Source of the DNA: Alphaproteobacteria bacterium
GTDB lineage: Bacteria; Pseudomonadota; Alphaproteobacteria; UBA2966
Length of the DNA: 64,000 nt
Direction of reading: 5' to 3'
Assembly (NCBI GenBank): GCA_965200265.1
Contig: OZ241357.1
Coordinates: forward strand, 8,179 to 72,178
Shown: one piece after another, positions 23,367-64,000 of the stretch
Position numbering within the stretch: position 1 is the first letter of the stretch
Layout: every line of letters begins with the position of its first letter
Notes under the pieces: generated by a model
Databases searched by the model: none
The model's input: only the letters and a program-made list of their open reading frames with translations
Told to the model about the DNA's origin: nothing
Translations under genes and position numbers: made by a program

Positions 23367-24398
23367 ATGGTCGCGATGCCTGAAGCGCCGCTCGCAATGG
23401 GCGGGGACACGGACGTGAAAGCGCTCGCCGAAGGCGTCCGCAGCGGCGACCGGCGCGCCCTGGGACGCGCCGTCACGCTGATCGAGTCGCGCCGGGCGGA
23501 TCACCAGGACCGGGCGCTGGCGTTGCTGGACGTGCTGCTTCCCGATGCGGGCAACGCGGTTCGGGTCGGCGTCTCCGGTGCGCCGGGCGTCGGCAAGTCG
23601 ACGTTCATCGAGGCGGTCGGGGTCGGGTTGACGGCCGCCGGCCACCGGGTCGCCGTCCTGGCGGTCGATCCGTCCTCGAGCCGTTCGGGCGGTTCGATCC
23701 TCGGCGACAAGACGCGCATGAACGACCTGTCCCGGGACCCTGCCGCGTTCGTTCGGCCGTCGCCGGCCGGGGGCGCCCTCGGGGGGGTGGCGCGGCGCAC
23801 GCGCGAGGCCATGCTCGTCTGCGAGGCCGCGGGTTTCGACGTCGTGATCGTGGAGACGGTCGGGGTCGGCCAGTCCGAGACGGCGGTGGCCGGCATGGTC
23901 GACACCTTCCTCCTGCTCATCGCGCCCGGCGGCGGCGACGAGCTGCAGGGCATCAAGCGGGGGATCGTGGAGCTCGCCGACGTCGTGTTCGTGAACAAGG
24001 CGGACGGCGACCTCGCCGGTCAGGCCAGGGCCGTGGCCGCCGAGTACGCCGCCGCCCTGCGTCTCCTGCGGCCGGCGACGAAGTTCTGGACGCCGCGGGT
24101 CCAGACGTGCTCGGCCCTGAAAGGGACCGGCATCGGAAACGTCTGGCGCACCATCGAAGCCCACCATCGCGCATTGCGGGCGGGCGGCGAGCTCGGCCGC
24201 CGCCGCGAAGCGCAGGCCCGTCACTGGATGTGGAGCGAGATCGGCGACAGTCTGATCGCGTCCCTGCGCGAAGACCCCGCCACGGCGGCGCTGATACCGG
24301 CGCTCGAGCGGGACGTGAGCGCCGGCCGCGCCACGCCCGGCGCGGCCGCGCAACGCCTGCTCGGCGCCTTTCGCGCCGCCGGAGACGGCGGCCGATAG
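23367..24398 (+). CDS. meaB: methylmalonyl-CoA mutase-associated GTPase MeaB/ArgK
   Basis: ORF 23367..24398. [13 protein letters not shown]-loop [18 protein letters not shown] and NKADG motifs. Confidence 0.9.
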
Positions 24399-47032: not shown

Positions 47033-47125
47033 TGTTTTCAGTGGCCGGTGCTGGCAACTGGCCACCGGCCACCGGCCACCGGCAGCCGGCCACTGGTCAC
47101 CGGCGCTCCCAGGGACATGCCGGAA
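47033..47125 (+). repeat. TIR-less relic of the MITE-like family
   Basis: GTTTTCAGTGGCCGGTG..CTGGCAACTGGCCACCGGCCACCGGCC...GGCGCTCCCAGGGACATGCCGGA is colinear with the interior of copies A and B. The TCAGTTTGAAAT ends are missing. Confidence 0.6.
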
Positions 47126-49929: not shown

Positions 49930-50012
49930 GAGTGGCTGGTTGCCGGTTGCCGGTGGTCAGTGCCCCCCGCGCGCACTGACCACTGGCCACCGACCACCGG
50001 CCACCGGCCGCG
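49930..50012. repeat. heptamer-tract relic plus 9-bp-stem hairpin overlapping the glcF 3' end
   Basis: GCTGGTT GCCGGTT GCCGGTG heptamers, then hairpin GGTCAGTGC-n9-GCACTGACC (49954-49980), then CACTGGC CACCGAC CACCGGC CACCGGC. The last about 20 glcF codons (PVAGGRWPVVSARGGH) are read from this sequence. Confidence 0.6.
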
Positions 50013-51276
50013 GGCCGCCCGTCGCCCAGTCCAGAAGCTCCACCGTGTGGACGACCGGAAGGTCCGTGTAGGCCCCGATCTGCATGATGCAGCCGAGGTT
50101 GCCGGCCGCGACGACGTCGGGCGGCCCGGCGCGCTCCAGGTTCGCGGCCTTGCGCGCCCCGAGCCGCGACGCGATGGCCGGCTGGAGCATGTTGTAGGTT
50201 CCGGCGGAGCCGCAGCACAGGTGCCCCTCGGCCGGCGACCGGACGTCGAACCCCGCTTCCGCCAGCAGGCGCCGCGGCGGCTCGGTGAGGTGCTGTCCGT
50301 GGCGCAGGGAGCAGGCGTCGTGATAGGCCACGACCGTCGGTCGCGCCGGCCCCGGCTTCAGGTCCAGGCGCGCGAGCAACTCGGTCACGTCGACGGCGCG
50401 CGCGGCCACGGCCGCCGCCGCCTCGCGGAGTTCCGGCCGGTTGCGGAACAGGTGGGCGTAGTCCTTGATCGCGGCGCCGCACCCGGAGGCGTCGGCGACG
50501 ATGGCGTCGAGGCCGCCGCCCTCGATCTCGCGCCACCACGCCCGCACGCTCCGCTCCGCCGCGCGCAGCGCCGCCCGTTTGTCGCCGAGATGAAGGTTGA
50601 GCGCGCCGCAGCAGCCGGCGCCCTTGGCGACGACCACCTCGCATCCGTGCCGCCGCAGGACGCGCATCGTCGCTTCGTGGATCTCCGTCCCCGTCACCGA
50701 CTGGACGCAGCCCGTCAGCAGCGCCGCCCGCATGAGCCGCTCGCCTTGCGCGGGGTGGCGGCCGGGGGCGACGGCCGGCGCCGGGCCGCGGGCGATGCCG
50801 GGCGACAGCCGCGCCAGCGCCGCCAGGCGCGGCGGCAGCAACGCCGAGAACCGGCGCGCCAGGGCGCCCGCCGACATGGCAATTCGGAGCGCCGGCGGCC
50901 TGACCAGCACCCAGCCCAGGATGCGCCGCAGCCAGCGGTCCGGCCACGGGCGGCGGAACGTCGTTTCGATGCGGACGCGCGTCTGGTCGACGAGGCGCCG
51001 GTAGTCGACCCCCGCCGGGCACGTCGACTCGCACGACAGGCAGGAGAGGCAGCGGTCGATGTGCTTGACGGTCTCCGCCGCCGGGGGGCCGCCGGCCTCC
51101 AGCATCTCCTTCATGAGATAGACGCGCCCGCGCGGCGAATCGAGCTCGTCCCCGAGCAGGACGTAGGTCGGGCAGGTCGCCAGGCAGAACCCGCAGTGAA
51201 CGCACTTCCGCAGCACGCCGTTCGCGTCCGCGATCAGGGGATCGGCGAGCTGCTCCTCGGAGAAACGGGTCTGCAT
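49957..51276 (-). CDS. glcF: glycolate oxidase iron-sulfur subunit
   Basis: Inner start MQTRFSEEQLADPL in ORF 49957..51363. Two ferredoxin motifs, CVHCGFCLATCP and CLSCLSCESTCP, and CCG-type C-terminal domains (CCGSAG, CCGALN). Confidence 0.87.
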   Translation of the reverse strand: MQTRFSEEQLADPLIADANGVLRKCVHCGFCLATCPTYVLLGDELDSPRGRVYLMKEMLEAGGPPAAETVKHIDRCLSCLSCESTCPAGVDYRRLVDQTRVRIETTFRRPWPDRWLRRILGWVLVRPPALRIAMSAGALARRFSALLPPRLAALARLSPGIARGPAPAVAPGRHPAQGERLMRAALLTGCVQSVTGTEIHEATMRVLRRHGCEVVVAKGAGCCGALNLHLGDKRAALRAAERSVRAWWREIEGGGLDAIVADASGCGAAIKDYAHLFRNRPELREAAAAVAARAVDVTELLARLDLKPGPARPTVVAYHDACSLRHGQHLTEPPRRLLAEAGFDVRSPAEGHLCCGSAGTYNMLQPAIASRLGARKAANLERAGPPDVVAAGNLGCIMQIGAYTDLPVVHTVELLDWATGGPRPVAGGRWPVVSARGGH

Positions 51277-51391
51277 GGTGCCGCCGACGCTCCTTGATCG
51301 GGTCCTTGGGTATCCGCCCCGGAATATATCACCCCGTCCCTCCTGCCGTAGGGGTGGGGACAATTGACGGTGCGCGCCGACATGCGGCAGC

Positions 51392-53092
51392 TTGGGCGCA
51401 CATGCATCCGGCGGCCCATACGTGGAGAACGGCCCTCATGGCTCGACGAAGCCCCTCCGTTTCCGGCCCGGTCGCCGCGCACCGCGCGAGGCCGCGTTCG
51501 TGAACGCGCTGCACGCCGTCCTCAAACGGGTACGGGCGCGACTCGTGCTCATAATCCTCGTCGCGCTGCTGATCGGTCTGCTCGTGGTCTTCGTATGGGT
51601 CGGAGTTTTCGACCCGGCATGGGTCCATCGCTTCTTCTTCGGCGAGGTGAAGGACGCGGAGAAGTCTCGAATCCTGGAACTCATCGGCGTCGGCATGGGC
51701 GGCGTGCTGCTCGCCATCGGGGCGACGATCGCCAATCGCCGCGCCGTGGCGATGGAGGTGACCAACCGGGGCGCGGAGGACGGGCGGCGGCAGGAGCGGC
51801 TGAAGAACGCCATCGAGCATCTGGGCTACAAGTCGGACTCGGTGCGCCTGGGCGGGGCCTACGAACTCTTCCATCTGGCGCGGGATACCAAAGACCTGCG
51901 CCAGACGGTTATGGACATCCTCTGCGCCCACATCCGCCGGACAACGGGGGAGGACGGGTATCGGGAGACGTACAAGGAGAAGCCTTCGACGGAGGTGCAG
52001 AGCCTGCTGACTCTGTTGTTCAGACAGGAGCATGAAGTCTTCACGGGCCGCCGCATCGACTTGCAGGGAAGCTGGCTGAACGGGGCCATGCTCGAACGGG
52101 CGCGACTGCAACGGGCGGAACTTTCTGGAGCATATCTGCAAGGGGCGATCCTTCACGGGGCGGAACTGCAAGAGGCGATCCTTCACGGGGCGGAACTACA
52201 AGGGGCGAGCCTTCACGAAGCGCAACTGCAAGAGGCGTACCTTCACGAAGCGCAATTGCAAGGAGCGGACCTTCACATGGCGCAACTGCAAGGGGCGACC
52301 CTTCACGAAACGCAACTGCAAGGGGCGCAACTGCAACGAGCGAACCTTCACGGGGCGGAACTGCAAGAAGCGAACCTTCACGGGGCGGAACTGAAAGGAG
52401 CGAACCTTCACGGGGCGCAACTGCAAAGAGCGAACCTTCTCGAAGCGCAACTGCAAGGAGTGAACCTTCACGTGGCGCAACTGCAAGGAGCGTACCTTTA
52501 CGAAGCGCAACTGCAAGGGGCGGACCTTCACGGGGCGGAACTGCAAGGAGCGGATCTTCATGCGGTGCAACTACAAGGAATGAACCTTCACGGGGCGGAA
52601 CTGCAAGGAGCGAACCTTCACGCGGCGGAACTGCAAGGAGCGAACCTTCACGCGGTGGAACTACAAGGGGCGAACCTTCTCGAAGCGCGACTGCAAGGGG
52701 CGAACCTTCACGCGGTTCAACTGCAAGGAGCAAACCTTCACAAAGCGCAACTGCAAGAAGCGAACCTTCACGCGGCGCATCTGCAAGGGGTTACTTGCCA
52801 GGATAGCAGTCGTATATCGTTCAAGGGGCGTATCCGCGAAGGGATCGGCCGAGAGAACGACCTGTCAAAGGTGACGTTCGCGGGCGGGTTGAGTCAGGAA
52901 GACGTGGATTCTCTCGTTCAGGATTTGCCCGGCGAAAAAGCGAAAAAGTTGCGGGAGAAACTGGAACCGCATGTCGACAAGGAGGCGAGCAACGAATTGC
53001 CGGAAGGCAGAGGCGCCATTGTCGAGGCCTATACGGTGGAAGAAGCCGAGCGGTGGATCGCCGAATATGCGGAAGCGACGGGTGAAGCCTAA
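51392..53092 (+). CDS. membrane-anchored pentapeptide-repeat protein, paralog 1
   Basis: ORF 51392..53092; GTG 51500 (VNALHAVLKR) is a plausible alternative start. Two TM helices (LVLIILVALLIGLLVVFVWVGVF and ILELIGVGMGGVLLAIGATIA), then a helical module LKNAIEHLGYKSDSVRLGGAYELFHLA. About 48 consecutive A(N/D)L..-type pentapeptides follow, then a conserved tail AYTVEEAERWIAEYAEATGEA. Confidence 0.8.
   Translation: MGAHASGGPYVENGPHGSTKPLRFRPGRRAPREAAFVNALHAVLKRVRARLVLIILVALLIGLLVVFVWVGVFDPAWVHRFFFGEVKDAEKSRILELIGVGMGGVLLAIGATIANRRAVAMEVTNRGAEDGRRQERLKNAIEHLGYKSDSVRLGGAYELFHLARDTKDLRQTVMDILCAHIRRTTGEDGYRETYKEKPSTEVQSLLTLLFRQEHEVFTGRRIDLQGSWLNGAMLERARLQRAELSGAYLQGAILHGAELQEAILHGAELQGASLHEAQLQEAYLHEAQLQGADLHMAQLQGATLHETQLQGAQLQRANLHGAELQEANLHGAELKGANLHGAQLQRANLLEAQLQGVNLHVAQLQGAYLYEAQLQGADLHGAELQGADLHAVQLQGMNLHGAELQGANLHAAELQGANLHAVELQGANLLEARLQGANLHAVQLQGANLHKAQLQEANLHAAHLQGVTCQDSSRISFKGRIREGIGRENDLSKVTFAGGLSQEDVDSLVQDLPGEKAKKLREKLEPHVDKEASNELPEGRGAIVEAYTVEEAERWIAEYAEATGEA
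52076..52790 (+). repeat. about 24 tandem 30-bp units encoding the pentapeptide solenoid
   Basis: Near-identical units such as CTTCACGGGGCGGAACTGCAAGGAGCGAAC recur throughout, producing the mirror-image antisense ORFs 52041..52733 and 52196..52570. Confidence 0.85.
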
Positions 53093-53131
53093 GAGGACGC
53101 CGACGGCAAGGACGCGCCGACATGCGGCAGC

Positions 53132-54346
53132 TTGGGCGCGTGTGCATCCGGCGGCCCATACGTGGAGAACGGCCCTCATGGCTCTACGAAGCCCCTTCGT
53201 TTCCGGCCCGGTCGCCGCACGCCGCGCGAGGCCGCGTTCGTGAACGCGCTGCGAGCCATCCTCGAATGGGTACGGGAGTCGCCCGTGCTCGCGATTCTCG
53301 TCGCGCTGCTGATCGGTCTGCTCGTGGTCTTCGTGGTCGTCGGAGTTTTCGACCCGGCATGGGTCCATCGTTTCTTCGGCGTGGAGACGGGAACGGGAAA
53401 ATTCCGAATCCTGGAATTCATCGGCGTCGGCATGGGCGGCGTGCTGCTCGCCATCGGGGCGACGATCGCCCATCGCCGCGCCCGGGCGATGGAAGATGCC
53501 GCGAACGCGCAGGCGAAGGCGGTGGCGCAGCAGACAGTAGCCAACGAAGGCGCGGAGGACGGGCGGCGGCAGGAGCGGCTGAAGAACGCCATTGAGCATC
53601 TGGGCCACGAGTCGGACTCGGTGCGCTTGGGTGGGGCCTACGAACTCTTCCATCTGGCACAGGACACCGAGGATCTACGCCAGACGGTTATGGACATCCT
53701 CTGCGCCCACATCCGCCGGACCACGGGCGAGGCCGGGTATCGGGAGACGCACAAGGAGAAGCCTTCGACGGAGGTACAGAGCCTGTTGACCTTGCTGTTC
53801 GTACGGAAGCACGCGGTTTTCAGGGGTTGCCGCATCGACTTGCAGGAAAGTTGGTTGAACGGAGCAGAGCTCGCTGGAGCGTATTTATGTGGAGCATTTT
53901 TGGACGCGGCATATCTTCGACGTGCTACACTTGTTCATGCGTACTTACAGGGAGTTACATTTATAGGTACAGAAATGCAAAACTCCTATATTACGAATGC
54001 ACATATGCAAGGTTCTACTCTCATGGGGACTGAATTACAGGGAGCACAAGCTGTAAATACTTACTTTCAGGGTGCGATTTTACATGTAGTTGATTTGAAT
54101 GAATCCAATATAAATAATGCTGATTTTCGAGGTATAACACTGCCAAGATCAGGAGGTTTTTCGAACCTGATATTGGATTCCATAAATAAAGAAAGTGACT
54201 TGACTGGAATTATTTTTGGGCAAGAAAATAATCCACAAACTATACGAGTCATGCTTGAAAAAGCAGGTGCCATCATTGGAGCCTACACGGAGGAAGAAGC
54301 CGAGCGGTGGATCGCCGAATACAACGAAGCGACGGGCAGGGGATAG
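53132..54346 (+). CDS. membrane-anchored pentapeptide-repeat protein, paralog 2 (shorter, AT-richer repeat core)
   Basis: ORF 53132..54346 (alternative GTG 53240). The leader, TM and helical module are near-identical to paralog 1, as is the tail AYTEEEAERWIAEYNEATGRG. The central repeats (53.82-54.26 kb) are divergent and visibly lower in GC. The TAG stop lies 3 nt before the mod ATG. Confidence 0.8.
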   Translation: MGACASGGPYVENGPHGSTKPLRFRPGRRTPREAAFVNALRAILEWVRESPVLAILVALLIGLLVVFVVVGVFDPAWVHRFFGVETGTGKFRILEFIGVGMGGVLLAIGATIAHRRARAMEDAANAQAKAVAQQTVANEGAEDGRRQERLKNAIEHLGHESDSVRLGGAYELFHLAQDTEDLRQTVMDILCAHIRRTTGEAGYRETHKEKPSTEVQSLLTLLFVRKHAVFRGCRIDLQESWLNGAELAGAYLCGAFLDAAYLRRATLVHAYLQGVTFIGTEMQNSYITNAHMQGSTLMGTELQGAQAVNTYFQGAILHVVDLNESNINNADFRGITLPRSGGFSNLILDSINKESDLTGIIFGQENNPQTIRVMLEKAGAIIGAYTEEEAERWIAEYNEATGRG

Positions 54347-55987
54347 CCGATGCCGACGTTGCATTGGCTGACGCGGGACGAGGACGTCGGCGCGGCGTCG
54401 CGGGCGCCGTACCGGCTTCTGGAGGAGGCGCCGGAGCTTTCCGCCGGAGAGGCGGAAGCGGGCAACATGCTGATCCAGGGCGACAATCTGGAGGCGCTGA
54501 AGGCGCTGCTGCCGTTCTACGCCGGGCGGGTGAAGTGCGTCTACATCGACCCGCCGTACAACACACGCTCGGCTTTCGCGCACTACGACGACAACCTGGA
54601 GCACGCCAAGTGGCTCGCCATGATGTGGCCGCGGCTGGAGCTCCTGCGCGACCTGCTGGCGGACGACGGCTCGATCTGGGTCTCCATCGACGACAACGAG
54701 GCGCACTACCTCAAGGTCGTCATGGACGAAGTGTTCGGCCGCAACAATTTCATCGCAAATTTCGTCTGGCAGAAGAAATATACGCGCGCGAACGACGCAA
54801 CGTTCGTGAGCGATAATCACGATCATATAGTCTGCTTTGTGAAAGATCGTGATCAGTCATCTTTTCGAGGAATACAGCGTGACGAGAGACAGAATAAAGC
54901 ATACAAGAATCCTGATAACGATTCTCGTGGATCGTGGAAATCAACACCATTACATGCGAAAAGCGGAACAGAAAAGAATAGATACCCCTATACGTTTTCC
55001 AACAGAGTGACATGGACCCCGCCTGTCGGAACCTACCACCGATTCAGCAGGGAAACACTTGCTGAGCTTGACCGTACAGGGCAATTGTGGTTTGGAACGA
55101 AGGGGGATGCGACTCCTTCGCGCAAGTCGTACCTGTCGCAAGTGAAGCAGACAGTGGTTCCGGTTACGGTATGGCTGCACGACGAGTTCGGTAGCAATCA
55201 CGACGCCAAGAACGAGAACCGGGCCGTGTTGCCGAGCGCCTATTTCGATACCCCAAAGCCCGAGAAGCTATTGGGACGTATTCTTGAGATCGCCACCGAC
55301 CCGGGCGATCTCGTGCTCGACTCGTTCCTCGGCTCCGGCACCACGGCGGCGGTCGCGCACAAGATGGGCCGGCGCTGGATCGGCGTCGAGCTGGGCGAAC
55401 ACGCCGTCACCCACTGCGCGCCGCGCCTGAAGAAGGTGATCGAGGGCGAACAGGGCGGCATCTCGCGGTCGGCGGGCTGGACGGGCGGCGGCGGCTTCCG
55501 CTTCCACCGCCTGGGGCCGCCGGCCTTCGACGCCGACGGGCGCATCCGGCCGGACGTCTCCTTCCCCGTGCTCGCCGCCCACGTCTGGTTCGCCGAGACC
55601 GGCCGCCCGTGGACCGCGCCGGCGGCGCCGTCGCCCTTCCTCGGCGCGCGCGACGGGCGGGGCTACGCGCTGCTCTACAACGGCGTGCTCCGCGACCGCT
55701 CGGCCGCCGGCGGCAACGTGCTGACGCGGCGCACGCTGTCGGCCATCCGCGCCGCGGCGGGCGGTTTCGACGGGCCGCTCACCGTCTACGCCGCGCGGTC
55801 GGCGTTCCGCGACGCGACGCTGAAGGCGGAAGGGCTGGCCTTCCGGCAGACGCCCTACGACGTGACGGCGCGGGCCTGACCGATGGAGCTCAAGCCCTAT
55901 CAGGCCGAGGCGCTCGACACGCTGCGCCGCTTCCTGGAGGACGCGCGGATCGCCGGGCCGGCGGCGTCCTACGAGAAGCTCGCCGCC
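54328..55987 (+). repeat. segmental direct duplication, copy 1 (mod allele 1 plus first ~35 codons of res)
   Basis: 54350-54745 and 55290-55987 are near-identical by eye to 60196-60590 and 61140-61836. The centres differ. Confidence 0.85.
54350..55879 (+). CDS. mod: type III restriction-modification methyltransferase (Mod), allele 1
   Basis: ORF 54350..55879. Beta-class order: catalytic DPPY (VYIDPPYNT) first, a variable middle, then SAM motif VLDSFLGSGTT. Confidence 0.9.
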   Translation: MPTLHWLTRDEDVGAASRAPYRLLEEAPELSAGEAEAGNMLIQGDNLEALKALLPFYAGRVKCVYIDPPYNTRSAFAHYDDNLEHAKWLAMMWPRLELLRDLLADDGSIWVSIDDNEAHYLKVVMDEVFGRNNFIANFVWQKKYTRANDATFVSDNHDHIVCFVKDRDQSSFRGIQRDERQNKAYKNPDNDSRGSWKSTPLHAKSGTEKNRYPYTFSNRVTWTPPVGTYHRFSRETLAELDRTGQLWFGTKGDATPSRKSYLSQVKQTVVPVTVWLHDEFGSNHDAKNENRAVLPSAYFDTPKPEKLLGRILEIATDPGDLVLDSFLGSGTTAAVAHKMGRRWIGVELGEHAVTHCAPRLKKVIEGEQGGISRSAGWTGGGGFRFHRLGPPAFDADGRIRPDVSFPVLAAHVWFAETGRPWTAPAAPSPFLGARDGRGYALLYNGVLRDRSAAGGNVLTRRTLSAIRAAAGGFDGPLTVYAARSAFRDATLKAEGLAFRQTPYDVTARA

Positions 55988-56023
55988 CACGCTGTCGCCA
56001 AGGCGGCTCCCCGTGTAACATGA
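55883..56023 (+). pseudogene. 5' stub of type III res (46 codons)
   Basis: MELKPYQAEALDTLRRFLEDARIAGPAASY matches the start of the full res at 61732. Identity ends at about 55987 and the frame stops at TGA 56021-56023. Confidence 0.8.
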
Positions 56024-56138: not shown

Positions 56139-57191
56139 ATGACCCGAACCACTGACATCAAGGCCATTGACTTCTGTTGTGGTGCCGGCGGATTGACTCG
56201 CGGCTTGCTTGACGCGGGCGTTTCGGTGGTGGCGGGGCTGGACAACGACGAGCGTCTACGCAAGACCTACGAGCGCAACAACAAGCCCAGCCGCTTCGTC
56301 GCTGGCGACATCGCCGAAGTGGAGATTGACGCGCTTCGGACCGATCTAGGCATCGACGAGGAAGACATCACCTTGTACGCCGCCTGCACACCTTGCCAGC
56401 CGTTCTCCAGCCTCAACACCGCCAAGGGCGAAGACGGCAGGAAATCTCTGCTGCTGGAGTTCGGCAAGATCGTGGCCCAGCGTCCGCCGGACTTCATCAT
56501 CGTGGAGAACGTGCCGGGCTTGCACAACGCCTTTGGCCTGGACATCTACCAGGAGTTCATGGCGGCTATCAAAGCCCAGGGCTTTTGCGCCGCCTCGGAC
56601 CTCTTGGACGCCAAGGACTACGGCGTTCCGCAAACGCGCAAGCGCTTCATTCTCGCCGCCGCCAGGGGCCGCGAGCCCCGGCTGCCTGTCGCCACGACCA
56701 GGAACAGCCCGGTCACCGTGCGCGAGTGCATCGAGAAGTACCCACCCTTGGCGGCCGGCGAACAAGACACCAGGTTCGTCAACCACGCCGCCCGCAAGCT
56801 GCCACCACACCATCAGAGAATCGTAGCCGCCGTGCCCACGGATGGCGGTAGCCGCAGCGACGTGGCTGACACGTCGATTCTGCTGCCCTGCCACCAACGC
56901 CACCCCAAGGCGCACAAGGACGTTTTCGGCCGCATGGCGTGGGATGCGCCCAGCCCGACGTTGACCTGCCGCTGCACGGATGTCTACTGTGGCCGCTTCG
57001 TCCACCCACAGCAGGACCGCGGCATCTCGCTGCGCGAAGCCGCCGCGCTACAGACGTTCGACGACAGCTACGAGTTCTTCGGCGGCTCGTTCCTGGAGCA
57101 GGCGCGGCAAATCGGCAACGCCGTTCCCGTGCGACTGGCAAGAGCCTTGGGAACGGCTGCCATCGAGTGCCTGCAACCGACCAGGGCCTAG
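56139..57191 (+). CDS. DNA (cytosine-5)-methyltransferase
   Basis: ORF 56139..57191. Motif I DFCCGAGG, IV TPCQPFS, VI ENVPGL, VIII QTRKRF, X GNAVPV. Confidence 0.93.
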   Translation: MTRTTDIKAIDFCCGAGGLTRGLLDAGVSVVAGLDNDERLRKTYERNNKPSRFVAGDIAEVEIDALRTDLGIDEEDITLYAACTPCQPFSSLNTAKGEDGRKSLLLEFGKIVAQRPPDFIIVENVPGLHNAFGLDIYQEFMAAIKAQGFCAASDLLDAKDYGVPQTRKRFILAAARGREPRLPVATTRNSPVTVRECIEKYPPLAAGEQDTRFVNHAARKLPPHHQRIVAAVPTDGGSRSDVADTSILLPCHQRHPKAHKDVFGRMAWDAPSPTLTCRCTDVYCGRFVHPQQDRGISLREAAALQTFDDSYEFFGGSFLEQARQIGNAVPVRLARALGTAAIECLQPTRA

Positions 57192-57205: not shown

Positions 57206-59113
57206 GTGTCCAGTCCCTACCGGATCGATTTCGACATTTCCACCATCAAGCACCTCGGCTTGCAAATGTACGCCACGCTGCCGCCGGTGGTCGGGGAACT
57301 GGTCGCCAACGCTTGGGACGCAAACGCCACCCAAGTCGAAATCACCATCCCGGAAACGCCGATAGACGAGCACACGTCGGAAATCGTCATCAAGGACAAC
57401 GGTGTCGGCATGTCCGACAGCGACATTCGCGAAAAGTACCTCATCGTCGGTCGCGACCGGCGCGAGAGCGAAGGCCGTGACCGGACCCCTGCGCCATTGA
57501 ACCGCCCAATCATGGGACGCAAGGGCATCGGCAAGTTCTCGGCGTTCGGCATCGCCCGAGAGCTGGAGATAGAGAGCGTCAGCAACGGCACCGTAAGCCG
57601 CTTCGTGATGGATTACGACACGATGCTCGCAAACGCATCACGCCGCCATGCCGAATTTCCACCGCTTCAGCCCACCGGATGCACAACGGAGGGCACGACG
57701 ATCAGGCTGAGGCGAATTACCAAGTATCGGACTCGGAGCATCTCGTTGCCTCGGTTGCGCCGAGGGCTCGCCAGACGCTTCGCCGTCATCGGCTCGCAGC
57801 GCCAATTCCAGGTCGTCATCAACGACTCGCGGATCTCCGTCGAGGAGCGGGAAATGCAGCGGCTGCTCGCGAAGGATGCCGACGGCAACGCCTATCTTTG
57901 GAAGTTTGAGGACGAGGAGATCATGCCCGAGACCGGTTGGAACGTATCCGGTTGGATCGGCGCATTGGACCGAACGACGTCAGATGCGGATGGCGTGGAC
58001 CGAGGCATCTCCATCATGGCGCGCGGTAAGCTCGTGCAGGAGCCGTTCGTGTTCAACGCCGTCGTCGGCCAACAATTTGCACTGTCGTACCTCGTCGGGG
58101 AACTGCACGCGGAGTTCGTCGATGCTGGCGAGGACACCATTGGAACGAGCCGCAACGTGTTGGTCTGGGATACTGAAGCGAACGCCAAACTCATGGAGTG
58201 GGGAAAACGGCAGGTAACGAAGATCGCTCGCGAGTGGGCGGAGAAACGCCAAACCGACAACATTCGTAAACTGGAGAACAACGACCTGTACCGCAGCTTC
58301 AAGGAGCGTGCGAGCGAAGTCGGCAGCAAACACGCGTTTCCATTGGCCGACAAACTTGTGCGACAAGCGATCAGTAAAAACCCCACGGCTGGCGTTGACG
58401 AACTAGAGCCCATCATCAAGACCTCTCTGGATTTTCTGGAGTTCGACACATTCTGGGAGATCGCCCAAGGAATGGTTCAATCCGATCTGGATGACGTTGC
58501 AGCGTTGCTTGGCTTGTTCAAGGAATGGGAGGTCGTGGAAGCGAAGGAGATGATGCGTGTTACCGAGGGCAGAATTACCACGATAGGGAAGCTGCAAGAC
58601 CTCATCGAGAAGAACGCCCTCGAAGTACCCACACTGCATAACTTTCTCAAGGAGTTCCCGTGGGTCATCGATCCACGCTGGACGCTGGTGGCTGATGAAG
58701 TTTGGTTCAGCGATATGTTGAAGGAGAAGTTCCCCGACGGCGATATTGCCGAGAAAGATAGGCGAATCGACTTTCTGTGCGTTCGCGAAAGTACGAACTT
58801 TGTGGTTGTTGAAATCAAGCGCCCAGGTAGCAAAGCTTCCAATAAGGAGTTGGATCAGATATTGCGCTATGTTTCTTTTGTTCGAGACTATGTGGAGCAA
58901 ACCACAGATCCTGAACTGGCGACTCGAAACGTGGTCGGCTACTTGCTTTGCGGCGATCTGGTTGATACTTGGGAGGTGCGAGGAAAAAAGAAAGTACTTG
59001 AGCAATCACAAATCTACGTGAGGCGATACGGGGACCTATTGGGTATGGTCAAGAAGATTCACCAAGAGTTCATCGAACGCTATGAACAGCTGCAAGAACG
59101 AATCAAGACGTGA
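57206..59113 (+). CDS. GHKL (MORC/MutL-like) ATPase fused to a C-terminal PD-(D/E)xK nuclease (DUF4263/Shedu-like)
   Basis: GTG 57206 follows AAGGAAG in ORF 56939..59113. N box ELVANAWDA, G1 DNGVGM, G2 GRKGIGKFS. C-terminus RIDFLCV...VVVEIKRPG carries a D...ExK signature. Starts 14 nt after the C5-methyltransferase. Confidence 0.78.
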   Translation: MSSPYRIDFDISTIKHLGLQMYATLPPVVGELVANAWDANATQVEITIPETPIDEHTSEIVIKDNGVGMSDSDIREKYLIVGRDRRESEGRDRTPAPLNRPIMGRKGIGKFSAFGIARELEIESVSNGTVSRFVMDYDTMLANASRRHAEFPPLQPTGCTTEGTTIRLRRITKYRTRSISLPRLRRGLARRFAVIGSQRQFQVVINDSRISVEEREMQRLLAKDADGNAYLWKFEDEEIMPETGWNVSGWIGALDRTTSDADGVDRGISIMARGKLVQEPFVFNAVVGQQFALSYLVGELHAEFVDAGEDTIGTSRNVLVWDTEANAKLMEWGKRQVTKIAREWAEKRQTDNIRKLENNDLYRSFKERASEVGSKHAFPLADKLVRQAISKNPTAGVDELEPIIKTSLDFLEFDTFWEIAQGMVQSDLDDVAALLGLFKEWEVVEAKEMMRVTEGRITTIGKLQDLIEKNALEVPTLHNFLKEFPWVIDPRWTLVADEVWFSDMLKEKFPDGDIAEKDRRIDFLCVRESTNFVVVEIKRPGSKASNKELDQILRYVSFVRDYVEQTTDPELATRNVVGYLLCGDLVDTWEVRGKKKVLEQSQIYVRRYGDLLGMVKKIHQEFIERYEQLQERIKT

Positions 59114-59152
59114 GCCGATGCGATGGCCAAGTCGGACATCGGCCGCGCGACC

Positions 59153-59290
59153 CGGTCACGGCCGGCGGAACGTCGATTCGATGTGGACGCGCGTCTGGTC
59201 GACTTCCGCCAAGCATGTCGACTCGCACGACAGGCAGGGGAGGCACCGGTCGATGTGCTTGACGGTCTCCGCCGCCGGGGGGCTGCCGGC
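59153..59290 (-). pseudogene. glcF fragment
   Basis: Colinear with glcF nt 50937-51096 (CGGCGGAACGTCG.TTCGATG.GGACGCGCGTCTGGTCGAC ... GTCGACTCGCACGACAGGCAGG.GAGGCA.CGGTCGATGTGCTTGACGGTCTCCGCCGCCGGGGGG). It has an internal deletion and reads ...AAETVKHIDRCLPCLSCESTC... then stops. Confidence 0.75.
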
Positions 59291-59425: not shown

Positions 59426-60160
59426 ATGTCTACTGCTGATGAACGACAATACAAACCACCTCGTATAGATAAGCGGGCCTTCAATTGCCCGCATTGTGGT
59501 GCTTTTGCGCACCAATATAAATATCAGACGATGGTCCAAATGATAACAAGTGATGAAAATTTCACTGCAACAATATCTCGCGATATGTCACAAAACAGGA
59601 AGAATCCATTCATAACACAAAATAATTCATATTCTCAATATCAACGAGATATGGGAGGTATTTACTTTTTTCGTTGCGGCAGCTGTCATGAGTTATCCAT
59701 ATGGATATTCAGTGAGATGATCTGGCCCTCGAAGAGTGGCGTACCACTTCCAAATCCAGATTTGCCGGATGATGTCCGTAGGGATTATGAAGAGGCAGGT
59801 GCCATTCTCGGATCGTCACCTAGGGGTGCCGCAGCATTGTTACGCTTGAGTATCCAGAAGTTGTGCAAACACCTTGGCGAATCTGGGGATAACTTGAACA
59901 AAGACATCTCTGAATTGGTCAAAAAAGGTCTCCCTCCTCTAATAAAAGAGTCGTTGGATTCGGTCCGGGTAATCGGAAACCATGCTGTTCATCCAAGTCA
60001 TATCGATCTTCAAGATGATCCAGAAACAGCACGAATCTTGTTTGATCTTGTCAATATAATTGCGGATTCAATGATAAGCACCCCGAATAAGGTGAAGAAG
60101 GTATATGAAAGTCTTCCTGAAGGCGACAAGCAAGCGATAAAAAAGAGGGACGCGAGTTAG
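59426..60160 (+). CDS. DUF4145 domain protein with N-terminal 4-Cys zinc ribbon
   Basis: ORF 59426..60160, the lowest-GC gene in the window. CPHCG...CGSC, and a helical segment AAALLRLSIQKLCKHLG...LDSVRVIGNHAVH typical of DUF4145. Confidence 0.7.
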   Translation: MSTADERQYKPPRIDKRAFNCPHCGAFAHQYKYQTMVQMITSDENFTATISRDMSQNRKNPFITQNNSYSQYQRDMGGIYFFRCGSCHELSIWIFSEMIWPSKSGVPLPNPDLPDDVRRDYEEAGAILGSSPRGAAALLRLSIQKLCKHLGESGDNLNKDISELVKKGLPPLIKESLDSVRVIGNHAVHPSHIDLQDDPETARILFDLVNIIADSMISTPNKVKKVYESLPEGDKQAIKKRDAS

Positions 60161-60177: not shown

Positions 60178-61836
60178 AGGAAGCGACAAGCACCTATGCC
60201 GACGCTGCATTGGCTGACGCGGGACGAGGACGTCGGCGCGGCGTCGCGGGCACCGTACCGGCTTCTGGAGGAAGCGCCGGAGCTTTCCGCCGGAGAGGCG
60301 GAAGCGGGCAACATGCTGATCCAGGGCGACAACCTGGAGGCGCTGAAGGCGCTGCTGCCGTTCTACGCCGGGCGGGTGAAGTGCGTCTACATCGACCCGC
60401 CGTACAACACGCGCTCGGCCTTCGCGCATTACGACGACAACCTGGAGCACGCCAAATGGCTCGCCATGATGTGGCCGCGGCTGGAGCTCCTGCGCGACCT
60501 GCTGGCGGACGACGGCTCGATCTGGGTCTCCATCGACGACAACGAGGCACACTACCTCAAGGTCGTCATGGACGAGGTGTTCGGAAGAACATGTTTCATC
60601 GGGAATATGATTTGGCAGAAGATATTTTCTCCGAAGAACAGTGCTCGGCACTTTTCGGCGGATCATGACCATATGTTTGTTTACGCTCGTGATTCGGAGA
60701 CTTGGTTGCCGAATCCGCTACCCAGAACGGAGAGGCAAGACAAGCTCTACAAGAATCCCGATAACGATCCACGCGGGCCTTGGACGTCGGGTGACCTTTC
60801 GGCTCGAAACTATTACGGCGCAGGGACCTATCCGGTGACTACTCCGAAAGGTAGAATCATTTCAGGCCCTCCCAAGGGTATGTATTGGCGTGTTTCCAAG
60901 GAGAAAATGGCTGATCTTGATCGAGAGGGGCGCATTTGGTGGGGATCAGGTGGCAACAATGTCCCCCGACTGAAACGCTATCTCTCGGAAGTAAGGACTG
61001 GAATCGTCCCGCAAACCATTTGGTTCAATCAGGATGTCGGCAATACGCAAGAAGCCAAGAAAGAGATCGTGAGCCTGTTCGGCGACGACGTGTTCGGCAC
61101 CCCCAAGCCCGAACGCCTGATCCAGCGCGTCCTGCACATCGCCACCGACCCGGGCGATCTCGTGCTCGACTCGTTCCTCGGCTCCGGCACCACGGCGGCG
61201 GTCGCGCACAAGATGGGCCGGCGCTGGATCGGTATCGAGCTGGGCGAGCATGCCGTCACCCACTGTGCGCCGCGCCTGAAGAAGGTGATCGAGGGCGAAC
61301 GGGGCGGCATCTCCACGGCAGCGGGCTGGACGGGCGGCGGCGGCTTCCGCTTTCACCGCCTGGGGCCGCCCGCCTTCGACGCCGACGGGCGCATCCGGCC
61401 CGACGTCTCCTTCCCCGTGCTCGCCGCCCACGTCTGGTTCGCCGAGACCGGCCGCCCGTGGACCGCGCCGGAGGCGCCGTCGCCCTTCCTCGGCGCGCGC
61501 GACGGGCGGGGCTACGCGCTGCTCTACAACGGCGTGCTCCGGGACCGCTCGGCCGCCGGCGGCAACGTGCTGACGCGCCGCACGCTGTCGGCCATCCGCG
61601 CCGCGGCGGGCGGTTTCGACGGGCCGCTCACCGTCTACGCCGCACGGTCGGCGTTCCGCGACGCGACGCTGAAGGCGGAAGGGCTGGCCTTTCGGCAGAC
61701 GCCCTACGACGTGACGGCGCGGGCCTGACCGATGGAGCTCAAGCCCTATCAGGCCGAGGCGCTCGACACGCTGCGCCGCTTCCTGGAGGACGCGCGGATC
61801 GCCGGGCCGGCGGCGTCCTACAGGAAGCTCGCCGCC
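60178..61836 (+). repeat. segmental direct duplication, copy 2 (mod allele 2 plus start of intact res)
   Basis: See copy 1. The offset between copies is about 5.85 kb. Confidence 0.85.
60196..61728 (+). CDS. mod: type III restriction-modification methyltransferase (Mod), allele 2
   Basis: ORF 60196..61728. The first 133 aa and the last ~205 aa are essentially identical to allele 1. The central ~170 aa (TCFIGNMIWQKIF...FGTPKPERLIQRVLH) diverge strongly. Confidence 0.9.
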   Translation: MPTLHWLTRDEDVGAASRAPYRLLEEAPELSAGEAEAGNMLIQGDNLEALKALLPFYAGRVKCVYIDPPYNTRSAFAHYDDNLEHAKWLAMMWPRLELLRDLLADDGSIWVSIDDNEAHYLKVVMDEVFGRTCFIGNMIWQKIFSPKNSARHFSADHDHMFVYARDSETWLPNPLPRTERQDKLYKNPDNDPRGPWTSGDLSARNYYGAGTYPVTTPKGRIISGPPKGMYWRVSKEKMADLDREGRIWWGSGGNNVPRLKRYLSEVRTGIVPQTIWFNQDVGNTQEAKKEIVSLFGDDVFGTPKPERLIQRVLHIATDPGDLVLDSFLGSGTTAAVAHKMGRRWIGIELGEHAVTHCAPRLKKVIEGERGGISTAAGWTGGGGFRFHRLGPPAFDADGRIRPDVSFPVLAAHVWFAETGRPWTAPEAPSPFLGARDGRGYALLYNGVLRDRSAAGGNVLTRRTLSAIRAAAGGFDGPLTVYAARSAFRDATLKAEGLAFRQTPYDVTARA

Positions 61837-64000
61837 GAACCCGAACTCGCGGCGCGGCTCGGGCGCTACGCCGGGACCTACGCGCCGCTCAAGGGCCTGC
61901 CGGAGACGCCGCACGTCTGCCTGCGCCTGCCGACCGGCGGCGGCAAGACGCTCCTCGCCGCCCATGCCGTCGCCGTCGCCCGCCGCGCCTGGGTCGATCG
62001 CGACCATCCCCTCGTCCTGTGGCTGGCGCCGACCGCGACCATCCGCCGCCAGACGGCGGAGGCGCTGAAGAACCCGCGCCACCCGTGCCGCCGCGCCCTC
62101 GACGCGGCGTTCGCGGGCCGGGTGCGCGTCTTCGACATCGCCGACTTCGCCCAGCTTCGCCCTCACGACCTGCGCGGCAGGTGCTGCGTCGTCGTCGGCA
62201 CCATCCAGACGCTGCGGGTCAAGGACACCGACGGCCGCAAGGTCTACGCCCACCACGAGGACATGGAGGCGCACTTCGCCGCCCTGCCCGCGGCCGCGAT
62301 CGATGCCGCCGCCGCGCCGGGGCTGGAGCGCCTGGAGAACGGCCGGGTCAAGTTCTCCTTCGCCAACCTGCTGCATCTCCAGCGCCCGCTGATGATCGTC
62401 GACGAGGCGCACAACGCCGTCACCGGGCTCACGCGCGAGATGCAGGAGCGGGTGAACCCGTGCGCCGTGATCGAGTTCACGGCCACGCCGCGCAAGGGCT
62501 CCAACGTCCTGTTCAACGCCACGGCGTCGGAACTGAAGCGCGAGGCGATGATCAAGCTGCCGGTCGTACTCGCCGAGCACGACGCCTGGGAGGGCGCGGT
62601 GACCGCCGCCGTCGCCGCCCGCGCGGCCCTGGCCGCGGCGGCGAAGGGGGAGCGCGAGTACGTCCGCCCGGTGGCCCTGTTCCAGGCGCAGCCGAAGAAC
62701 CGCGAGGTGACGGTCGCGGCGCTGAAGCAGCACCTGATCGAGGTCGAGCGCGTGCCCGAGGAGAAGATCGCCGTCGCCACCGGCGCCCAGCGCGAGCTCG
62801 ACGGGATCGACCTGTTCGACCCGGACTGCCCGATCGAGCACGTCGTCACCGTCGAGGCGCTCAAGGAAGGCTGGGACTGCTCCTTCGCCTACGTCTTCTG
62901 TTCGGTGTCGCGGATCGGGAGCGCCACCGACGTCGAGCAGCTTCTCGGCCGGGTGCTGCGGATGCCCTACGCCGAACGGCGCGCCGACGCCGCCCTGAAC
63001 AAGGCCCATGCCTTCGTCTGCGAACCGACGTTCGGCGCCGCGGCGAAGGCGCTGACGGACAGGCTGGTGGGCATGGGCTTCGAGGAGGACGAGGCGGAAG
63101 ACGCCATCGAGCGGCGGCAGCCGGCGCTGGACGGGAACGGCGGCCTGTTCCGTCCCGGCGGCGATGGGGATCGCGCGGAGACGCAAGGCCCGGCGTCGCC
63201 GGCGGACCGGGGAGAGGCCTTCGCGGTTCCGCGCCTGATGTCGGAAGTCCAGGAGGAGCTGGAGCTCGCCGACACCGACGTGTTCATGGAGAGTCACGAC
63301 TGGTCGCTCGCCGGCCATCCGTTCCGGCCGGACGCAAGCGCGTTCGAGATCCTCGAGACGGCGCGCGGGTTCGAGATCGACGTCGACGGCGACCGCGTGG
63401 TCTACAGGCAGACCGGCGCCGAAGCGCAGTTCATGCTCGACGTCGACGTGGAGGGCTGGACGCCGCAGAGCCTGGTGCTGTGGCTCGACCGCGAGGTCCG
63501 CGCCATCGACATCGACCAGGGCGACCTGATCGCCTGGCTGTCGGGCTTCGTGAACCACCTGACGGCGGCGTGCGGCCTCCCGCCCGCCGCGCTCATGCGC
63601 GCCAGGTTCCTGCTCGCGCGCAAGGCGAAAGGGCGGATTGCCGCCATCCGCCGCGAGGAGCGCGCGAAGGTCTACCAGCAGCGCCTGTTCGCGCCGGAAG
63701 CCCGGCCGCGGGTCTCCTTCGACCACGCCTTCGCGTTCCGCGACGGCATGTACGCCGACGAACGGCGCTACCGCGGGCGCTGGCGGCCGAACCGGCACTT
63801 CCTCGGCGCCGACGCCGTGCCCGCCTTCGACGGCGCCGACGACGGCGAGGAGGTCCAATGCGCCCAGGCCCTCGATTCCCTGCCCGGCGTGACGTTCTGG
63901 ATCAGGAACGTCGCGCGGCACCCGGAGTCGTTCCGGCTGCCGCTCGCGGAAGGCTGGTTCTATCCCGATTTCGTGGCCCGGCTCGACGACGGCCGGTTCC
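61732..64000 (+). CDS. res: type III restriction endonuclease Res subunit (helicase-nuclease), 3' end beyond window
   Basis: Not in the ORF track because no stop falls within the window; translated by hand from ATG 61732 with no stop to nt 64000. Motif I LPTGGGKT, II IVDEAHN, III FTATP, then ALKEGWDC and QLLGRVLR. Approaching the nuclease core, ...GWFYPDFVA. Confidence 0.88.
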   Translation, partial: MELKPYQAEALDTLRRFLEDARIAGPAASYRKLAAEPELAARLGRYAGTYAPLKGLPETPHVCLRLPTGGGKTLLAAHAVAVARRAWVDRDHPLVLWLAPTATIRRQTAEALKNPRHPCRRALDAAFAGRVRVFDIADFAQLRPHDLRGRCCVVVGTIQTLRVKDTDGRKVYAHHEDMEAHFAALPAAAIDAAAAPGLERLENGRVKFSFANLLHLQRPLMIVDEAHNAVTGLTREMQERVNPCAVIEFTATPRKGSNVLFNATASELKREAMIKLPVVLAEHDAWEGAVTAAVAARAALAAAAKGEREYVRPVALFQAQPKNREVTVAALKQHLIEVERVPEEKIAVATGAQRELDGIDLFDPDCPIEHVVTVEALKEGWDCSFAYVFCSVSRIGSATDVEQLLGRVLRMPYAERRADAALNKAHAFVCEPTFGAAAKALTDRLVGMGFEEDEAEDAIERRQPALDGNGGLFRPGGDGDRAETQGPASPADRGEAFAVPRLMSEVQEELELADTDVFMESHDWSLAGHPFRPDASAFEILETARGFEIDVDGDRVVYRQTGAEAQFMLDVDVEGWTPQSLVLWLDREVRAIDIDQGDLIAWLSGFVNHLTAACGLPPAALMRARFLLARKAKGRIAAIRREERAKVYQQRLFAPEARPRVSFDHAFAFRDGMYADERRYRGRWRPNRHFLGADAVPAFDGADDGEEVQCAQALDSLPGVTFWIRNVARHPESFRLPLAEGWFYPDFVARLDDGRF

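Follow-up and report, generated by a model that had tools for sequence, protein, structure and literature searches.

The PRP genes, their products and the junction with mod1

This study describes a defence locus in a 64,000-nucleotide stretch of alphaproteobacterial DNA (contig OZ241357.1; hereafter the window), in which two genes encoding pentapeptide-repeat proteins (PRPs) with two predicted transmembrane (TM) helices lie upstream of mod1, the methyltransferase gene of a type III restriction-modification (R-M) system. The features from the divergent neighbouring gene to mod1 are as follows (positions in the window; nt, nucleotides; aa, amino acids).

49957-51363, minus strand: glcF-like Fe-S gene, divergent from PRP1
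51373-51499, plus strand: leader copy 1, non-coding, 127 nt, between the glcF-like start (51363) and the PRP1 GTG
51500-53092, plus strand: PRP1, 530 aa from GTG, about 12 solenoid coils, start placed from homologues
52100-52788, plus strand: PRP1 solenoid core, a 15/30-nt tandem DNA repeat (TRF, 79-82% matches; repeat family D1)
53113-53239, plus strand: leader copy 2, upstream of PRP2, 94% identical to copy 1
53240-54346, plus strand: PRP2, paralogue of PRP1, 368 aa from GTG, about 5 solenoid coils; the 98% identical protein P0005 is called as 368 aa
54350-55879, plus strand: mod1, type III N6-adenine DNA methyltransferase (Pfam N6_N4_Mtase 6e-50; PADLOC MTase_III 7.7e-183)

The open reading frames (ORFs) on the plus strand extend further upstream, namely 51392-53092 for PRP1 (566 aa, open from TTG 51392) and 53132-54346 for PRP2 (404 aa). 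Since homologues start at MNALRAILEW, the true starts are most likely GTG 51500 and GTG 53240, and the 108 nt of PRP ORF lying 5' of the GTG are part of the leader, which was duplicated together with the PRP gene. A conserved regulatory leader was not found, as the 127-nt sequence is not conserved in other PRP loci and is duplicated only within the window. The sole Rfam match in the window was a tRNA located elsewhere, with no regulatory RNA at the leader; leader copy 1 contains no consensus sigma-70 site, and the promoter and terminator scans were uninformative.

The PRP2 stop codon TAG (54344-54346) is followed by CCG and then by the mod1 ATG at 54350, and an AGGGGA Shine-Dalgarno-like motif is present 8 nt 5' of this ATG, within the last codons of PRP2. 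No terminator-like site was detected by the scan between the two genes. The initial annotation, which was made from the letters alone, had placed the PRP genes head-to-tail upstream of mod with a spacing of 3 nt, and this reading proved exact. Its further proposal, that the PRP genes are apparently operonic with a type III R-M system, is in keeping with the close junction at mod1 and needs correction for res: mod1 is followed only by a res remnant, and the intact res stands after a second methyltransferase gene, mod2.

PRP1 and PRP2 share 66% identity across their N-terminal ~350 aa and end in a common tail, AYTxEEAERWIAEY. Both match PF00805 of Pfam (PRP1 at 5.1e-63 in 7 stretches, PRP2 at 8.2e-17) and contain at least eight contiguous pentapeptides of the A(D/N)LXX type, whose register is visible in the sequence. 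Two hydrophobic segments per protein, at residues ~15-36 and ~55-78, were detected by Kyte-Doolittle analysis in agreement with the helices predicted by AlphaFold2. There are basic residues before the first segment and after the second, and the positive-inside rule would therefore place both termini, and with them the repeats, on the cytoplasmic side.

The AlphaFold2 model of PRP2 (pLDDT 83, with solenoid blocks above 90) consists, from the N- to the C-terminus, of a membrane hairpin whose second helix runs ~40 residues past the membrane, a compact cap formed by helices (pLDDT >90), about 5 coils of right-handed solenoid, and three C-terminal helices, with the conserved tail as the final one (residues 351-365). 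Almost all of its top 50 Foldseek matches in the PDB were pentapeptide-repeat structures, including Np275/276, Rfr, HetL, MfpA, AlbG, and QnrB1 (E 1e-5 to 1e-7), which identifies the predicted solenoid as a quadrilateral beta-helix of right-handed sense. Thus, the paralogy, the two TM segments, the pentapeptide solenoid, and the shared tail EEAERWIAEY, all reported by the initial annotation, are confirmed by the identity, the Pfam match, the hydropathy profile, and the model. The helical module had been called HEAT-like; its best Foldseek matches were indeed HEAT/ARM proteins when it was modelled in isolation (pLDDT 74), but these matches were weak (all E >=0.6) and no Pfam HEAT match was obtained.

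Chance matches were all that Pfam (E up to 5) and a profile search of the PDB returned for the N-terminal module (hereafter N-module) and the tail, and PADLOC-DB v2 gave 0 families at E <=0.01 for PRP1 and PRP2. The NCBIfam cut-offs were not reached for Qnr (104 bits versus 240) or MfpA (78 bits versus 360). PRP1 exceeds the cut-off of the Alr5209 family NF052603 (193.8 bits versus 125, PRP2 55.8 bits), but its score is summed over 5 repeat stretches, and the architecture does not fit, as the model covers 113 positions and the PRPs are 530 and 368 aa long with a TM module. By these searches, the PRPs belong to the pentapeptide-repeat superfamily and appear to lie outside all its characterised families. 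The model and the family alignments show a predicted protein composed of a conserved N-module (two-helix hairpin, long helix, and cap), a variable solenoid, and a conserved acidic tail.

A three-gene cassette and its exceptions

Homologues were searched with the N-module only, to avoid noise from the repeats. The protein collection contained 537 relatives of 50-77% identity, and, at E <=1e-30, the N-module profile recovered at least 357 clusters (50% identity), annotated only as 'pentapeptide repeat'. Scanning one genome per species yielded 79 PRP loci, in which a close mod homologue was located downstream of PRP in 50 and res in 42, most of them intact and some fragmentary or disrupted. The synteny count proposed by the initial annotation thus came out in favour of an association with type III mod and res. 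Between the PRP stop codon and the mod ATG, 20 loci had a distance of -1 nt, 12 loci one of +3 nt (the spacing seen in the window), and 2 loci one of 0 nt. These junctions in 34 loci indicate that PRP and mod are translationally coupled, with PRP as the putative first cistron, and this spacing persists in loci whose Mod shares no more than 48-56% identity with the window Mod.

The distances between N-modules correlated with those between the Res proteins (r = 0.70, Mantel p = 0.001), so PRP and mod-res have moved together throughout the divergence of these Res proteins. The corresponding correlation with Res was weaker for either end of Mod (Mod-N versus Res, 0.39). The PRP-linked Res proteins are nearly monophyletic, with 29 sequences and only 4 PRP-less ones in the clade, and their identity is 78% within the set compared with 57% to PRP-less Res. 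Because they form this near-exclusive clade, the PRP-mod-res association probably arose once or a few times, in one type III sub-clade.

The gene order was found in at least eight bacterial phyla. The hosts are metagenome-assembled genomes (MAGs) of Alphaproteobacteria, Nitrospirales, Binatia, Latescibacterota, Gemmatimonadota, Entotheonella, Thermodesulfobacteriota, Terriglobia, and Gammaproteobacteria. As judged from gene order and sequence distances, PRP-mod-res is shown to be a conserved, horizontally mobile three-gene cassette. The record titles or bin names, the lineages, and one literature cross-check suggest that the hosts are apparently symbionts of high-microbial-abundance sponges: the SB0661 bins are among the sponge-associated Entoporibacteria (PMC7883664), and sponge taxa named in PMC12648040 match the taxa of the PRP host MAGs. 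Our literature search found no published link of pentapeptide-repeat proteins to type III R-M and the PRPs had no PADLOC match, in line with the initial annotation, to which no described defence system of this composition was known.

The association is not reciprocal. When metagenome contigs were scanned with the Mod profile, 80 loci of the same clade were obtained from other metagenomes (50-71% identity, 66 with res), and neither a PRP nor a PD-T7-4 gene was found in any of the 80, of which 48 had upstream sequence of 1.3 kb or more. In those 48 loci, different genes lay 5' of mod, and these included Abi_2-like, Fic, HEPN/DUF86, and antitoxin genes and a recurrent 111-aa protein, several of which were only 3-4 nt from mod. 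Conversely, 29 of the 79 PRP loci lack mod, and the PRPs there are of full length with an intact tail. Their neighbours were AAA_21/AAA_15 ATPases, HTH-M78 pairs, PIN toxins, a SIR2 protein, and a Type ISP enzyme. By N-module similarity, the solo and mod-linked PRPs are interleaved, and the nearest neighbour was a linked protein for 15 of 28 solo copies. Tandem PRP arrays of two to four or five copies occurred in 12 loci. Upstream of PRP there was no conserved gene, only a mix of HTH, AAA_21/15, M78, and PIN genes.

Based on these counts (0/80 and 29/79) and the tandem arrays, PRP is not a general or obligate third subunit of the type III system. Of the suggestion in the initial annotation that PRP is a third component, what survives is the conserved and coupled synteny.

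Other defence genes occupy the same positions in related loci. In the window, a PD-T7-4/DUF4145 gene lies 36 nt 5' of mod2, in the slot held by PRP2 before mod1. In two loci, a KAP-family P-loop NTPase of ~720 aa is located directly 5' of mod with a gap of 3-6 nt (L010:12768-14942 and L025:13702-15867), and the PRP gene is found further upstream. Insertions in the mod-res gap, comprising a HicAB-like pair, a GIY-YIG nuclease, a PIN toxin pair, and an HD-domain protein with a ~170-aa partner, were observed in L018, L024, L032, and L038 (~12.9-13.4 kb), in L010, L012, L025, L037, and L058, and in L030, L073, L079, and L039. In this clade, the flanks of mod (the 5' side and the mod-res gap) behave as docking sites for other defence genes, and in this sub-clade the 5' site is most often held by PRP.

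Some PRPs start with MPTLHWLKAR or MPILNWLKAR (L078:9887 and L031:9926), which can be compared with the Mod N-terminus MPTLHWLTRD (window 54350), and the first ~35 mod codons were observed as fragments between or after PRP genes in L002, L012, L001, L028, L035, and L074. This resemblance of PRP starts to the Mod N-terminus, together with the mod 5' fragments near PRP genes, points to recombination at the mod start as a means by which PRP cassettes are exchanged. In L078 (6252-11143 and 12795-17618), an array of four to five tandem PRP genes adjoins a convergent Type ISP restriction-modification enzyme of 1607 aa.

Possible roles of the PRP protein

The variation of the PRP protein is concentrated in its centre. 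In cassette pairs whose Res N-halves average 93% identity, identity was 86% for the N-module, 47% for the solenoid, and 59% for the C-terminal region, and the cap-to-tail span ranged from 209 to 450 residues in the family. Selection was estimated from Nei-Gojobori counts on repeat alignments. In unsaturated pairs, synonymous divergence (dS) was similar in all three parts. The ratio of nonsynonymous to synonymous change (omega) lay at 0.33-0.84 in the solenoid; in the N-module it lay at 0.03-0.2, apart from the least diverged pair, L002/L003, with 0.42. When solenoid positions were pooled by register, omega was 0.20 for inward-facing and 0.67 for outward-facing residues; the outward-facing value reached 1.37 in the least diverged pair, which covers 84 codons only and is not robust. 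Based on omega by part and register and on the cap-to-tail lengths, the fold is thus preserved and the ends are strongly constrained, with the solenoid surface and length free or diversifying. Recombination was rejected as the sole cause of solenoid divergence: solenoid dS equals that of the flanks in unsaturated pairs, and therefore replacement by foreign alleles is not needed in those pairs.

The explanation that we favour, at slightly less than even probability, is that PRP is an accessory defence protein whose expression is shared with the restriction enzyme but whose action is independent of it. This reading is supported by solo copies that are intact, by tandem paralogues that have diversified, by the hypervariability of the centre, and by the defence-island surroundings. 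It is also supported by the use of the mod 5' slot by stand-alone defence genes in sister cassettes, including PD-T7-4 of the window, an experimentally defined defence gene. In such a scheme, PRP would hold a slot that is otherwise used by PD-T7-4, Abi-like, KAP NTPase, or toxin-antitoxin genes; signalling or docking would fall to the membrane anchor and the tail, which are constant, the variable solenoid would form a recognition surface for changing invader proteins or at least a variable spacer, and tandem paralogues, as in the window, would broaden the recognition repertoire.

Several points weigh against this autonomous accessory role. A near-neutral solenoid surface is as compatible with an unconstrained spacer as with a diversifying sensor, and omega exceeded 1 in one pair only, over 84 codons. 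The tight coupling and the co-divergence with Res fit a physical partner of Mod-Res equally. The cassette may have a single origin, so the syntenic loci would not be independent events, and the genes in related loci were called by a longest-ORF rule. The sponge-symbiont origin of most of the MAGs was inferred, and the N-module and the tail have no match in Pfam, the PDB, or PADLOC that would tie them to an activity.

The arrangement most resembles, by analogy, the accessory defence genes that are embedded in R-M operons. A classical example is the anticodon nuclease PrrC, which is encoded inside the EcoprrI type Ic locus. As with PrrC-type genes, PRP is an accessory gene in or beside an R-M operon, putatively co-transcribed and replaceable by other defence genes, but it shows no nuclease or other recognisable effector domain and no sign of a guard relationship with the R-M enzyme. 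A constant module combined with fast-varying repeats that form superstructures, pentapeptide repeats included, has been described for conflict systems by Kaur, Burroughs, Iyer and Aravind in 2020 (PMC7159879). The PRPs likewise have a hypervariable centre and conserved ends; those systems, however, are built on NTPases, vWA, TRADD-N, or caspase modules, none of which is found in the PRPs, and no R-M link is described for their variable-repeat proteins (PMC7159879).

The R-M part of the cassette is an ordinary type III system: as in EcoP1I/EcoP15I, mod (N6_N4_Mtase with a variable recognition centre) is followed by res (SF2 helicase-like, ResIII). The differences are that a membrane-anchored PRP is encoded here by an extra coupled first cistron, whereas classical operons consist of two genes, and that mod1 of the window retains a res remnant only.

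The main alternative, which we regard as unlikely, is that PRP is a third subunit or regulator that binds Mod2Res via its tail or cap, or as a DNA-like rod. It would serve as a tether that keeps the enzyme at the inner membrane, the entry point of foreign DNA, or as a brake during establishment that delays restriction until methylation of the new host is complete, the latter being the brake proposed by the initial annotation. Its position as first cistron, at -1, 0, or +3 nt from mod in the 34 loci, is what such a subunit would show, and the correlation of PRP with Res exceeds that of Mod-N with Res. Restriction delay is established for EcoP1I/EcoP15I and would be useful for a cassette that moves between phyla; the window solenoids are acidic, and an unconstrained solenoid surface would suit a rigid spacer. 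On the other hand, the same mod-res clade works without PRP elsewhere (the 80 loci), and solo PRPs that remain intact are frequent and have originated more than once. A regulator of a single enzyme would hardly account for diversified paralogues in tandem, the charge of the solenoid is not conserved, the solenoid does not co-vary with the Mod specificity domain, and the window PRPs persist though mod1 has lost its res.

The charge bears directly on the premise of the initial annotation that the solenoid mimics B-DNA, and it was analysed from sequence rather than as surface potential. The window solenoids are acidic (PRP1 net -15 over 246 aa; PRP2 net -5 over 101 aa). Across 71 family members, however, the solenoid net charge had a median of 0 and a range of -11 to +15, with 44% negative, so DNA-mimic charge was rejected as a family trait; an electronegative, B-DNA-like surface is therefore absent as a family-wide property at the level of sequence charge, with the window copies on the acidic side. 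The C-terminal ~80 residues are always acidic in the family (median -9). The structural check proposed by the initial annotation accordingly returned the solenoid and not a conserved charge pattern. It had also drawn a parallel between the variable PRP core and the variable centre of mod, and this parallel was not borne out: similarity of the solenoid was unrelated to that of the Mod recognition domain (Spearman 0.03), being 0.36 for same-domain pairs and 0.35 for different-domain pairs, and co-variation was rejected.

No relatives of PRP were found in IMG/VR viral contigs, and a phage origin of PRP was rejected on this basis. Ocr and ArdA share with the proposal the idea of an elongated protein that imitates DNA and fills the DNA-binding site of an R-M enzyme, but they are phage- or plasmid-encoded, soluble, and uniformly very acidic, whereas the PRPs are encoded with the R-M system, membrane-anchored, and on average uncharged. 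As the charge, the missing co-variation, the Qnr/MfpA scores, and the viral search all speak against it, the DNA-mimic premise is weak as a mechanism and amounts to a resemblance of fold, and a charge-based DNA-mimic brake on Mod-Res is unlikely. Thus, the observations of the initial annotation are confirmed, because the paralogy, the repeats, the TM segments, the solenoid model, and the PRP2/mod1 junction all hold, and its interpretation is partly supported.

It is quite improbable that PRP is a passenger unconnected with defence, which would act in membrane organisation or in host interaction and stand beside mod only through shared descent of one mobile element. A historical origin of the synteny is conceivable, given that the PRP-linked Res proteins fall essentially into a single clade. 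Membrane pentapeptide-repeat proteins with non-defence roles exist, such as HglK of Anabaena, which lends this idea a precedent, and eukaryote-like repeat proteins are common in sponge symbionts. Nevertheless, the spacing of PRP and mod is retained as Mod falls to 48-56% identity, strong purifying selection acts on the N-module, the solo copies also lie among defence genes, and the predicted topology puts the repeats in the cytoplasm rather than towards a host.

The PRPs have the right-handed quadrilateral beta-helix of MfpA, Qnr, and AlbG, and their C-terminal helix could mediate dimerisation as in MfpA and Qnr; compared with the soluble tail-to-tail dimer of those proteins, PRP2 has such a helix (351-365) but also two TM segments. 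The PRPs further differ in the conserved helical N-module, in the variable length and non-conserved charge of the solenoid, and in having an R-M system rather than a topoisomerase as genomic partner. Known pentapeptide-repeat proteins act on gyrase, and in the Nitrospirales MAGs L055, L015, L021, and L040 the cassette or a solo PRP is inserted between gyrA and gyrB; this adjacency was rejected as a functional clue, as it represents one gyrA/gyrB site in Nitrospirales and probably an integration spot. The least probable explanation is that PRP shields gyrase or another DNA enzyme against a topoisomerase poison of the sponge holobiont, as Qnr, MfpA, and AlbG would, and hitch-hikes on an addictive R-M cassette: the shared fold, the occurrence only in symbionts that live together and come from many phyla (the pattern expected of a shared resistance gene), and the gyrA-gyrB position favour it, but the scores fall far under the Qnr and MfpA cut-offs, the known factors are soluble proteins of ~180-220 aa while the PRPs are anchored in the membrane, acidity of the surface is not a conserved feature, the location between gyrA and gyrB amounts to a single chromosomal site in a single order, and hypervariability of the solenoid is unexpected for a partner as conserved as gyrase.

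A bolder form, which we consider doubtful, is that PRP represents an immune component of a new kind within the three-gene cassette, either as a third subunit (tether or regulator) or as a hypervariable receptor anchored by two TM helices. If true, a membrane-tethering or regulatory PRP subunit would change how a type III enzyme meets incoming DNA; in the receptor version, the solenoid would sense invader proteins and act at the membrane. Type III R-M systems are regarded as two-gene systems, and a coupled third gene across at least eight phyla would add an unstudied layer to them, which could consist of localisation, regulation, or a second line of defence. Constant ends around a hypervariable solenoid are a signature usual in immune recognition proteins, and the cassette marks an extensive exchange of defence genes in what are apparently sponge microbiomes.

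The mosaic locus downstream of mod1

The remainder of the locus, from mod1 to the end of the window, contains the following features.

55883-56023, plus strand: res remnant, a 46-codon ORF whose first ~35 codons are homologous to res
56139-57191, plus strand: C5 cytosine methyltransferase of an inserted type II pair (Pfam DNA_methylase 1e-49)
57206-59113, plus strand: BbrUII/HgiDII-family GHKL restriction enzyme (HATPase_c_3; NCBIfam restrict_BbrUII 1e-102; PADLOC REase_II)
59147-59290, plus strand: glcF paralogue fragment, 144 nt, 88-89% identical to 50935-51096 within the intact glcF-like gene
59426-60160, plus strand: PD-T7-4/DUF4145 gene (PADLOC PD-T7-4 1.1e-78; Pfam DUF4145)
60196-61728, plus strand: mod2, a second type III methyltransferase allele with a different central region (PADLOC MTase_III 5.5e-193)
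61732-64000, plus strand, continuing beyond the window end: res, type III restriction subunit, the sole intact copy (open frame from ATG; orthologue in L160 with Pfam ResIII)

The 5' and 3' parts of mod1 and mod2 are 95-97% identical, their central target-recognition regions differ, and one intact res serves as the only copy between them. Both genes qualify as type III mod; a Res gene lies next to mod2, and mod1 has the 46-codon remnant only. The alignment of this remnant with the sequence from 61732 onward ends after ~105 nt, and the same 46-aa gene is present in L160. The mod1 gene and its PRP pair have lost their own res through insertion of the type II R-M pair, and therefore any restriction with mod1 would need the Res encoded after mod2.

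The G+C content drops from ~70% to 52-62% over 52-61 kb. Together with the res remnant, the inserted type II pair, the glcF piece, and the second mod, this drop marks the locus, by its composition and gene content, as a recombinational mosaic of defence genes. The glcF fragment marks a recombination scar, which suggests that the glcF neighbourhood is a recurrent integration site.

A relative of the locus, L160, is a contig 97% identical to the window with the same layout, and it differs precisely in the PRP1 core and the centre of mod2. The PRP1 allele in L160 looks as if it had been exchanged by recombination. The central region of mod2 (60622-61092) differs again in L160, which likely reflects the swapping of Mod specificity by recombination between conserved mod ends.

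Elsewhere in the window, REP-like intergenic runs of the heptamer GGCCACC were observed at 23638, 24614, 24867, 37359, 47065-47096, and 49997, and the motif CCGGCCACYGG occurred 8 times in the window compared with 0.28 expected matches.

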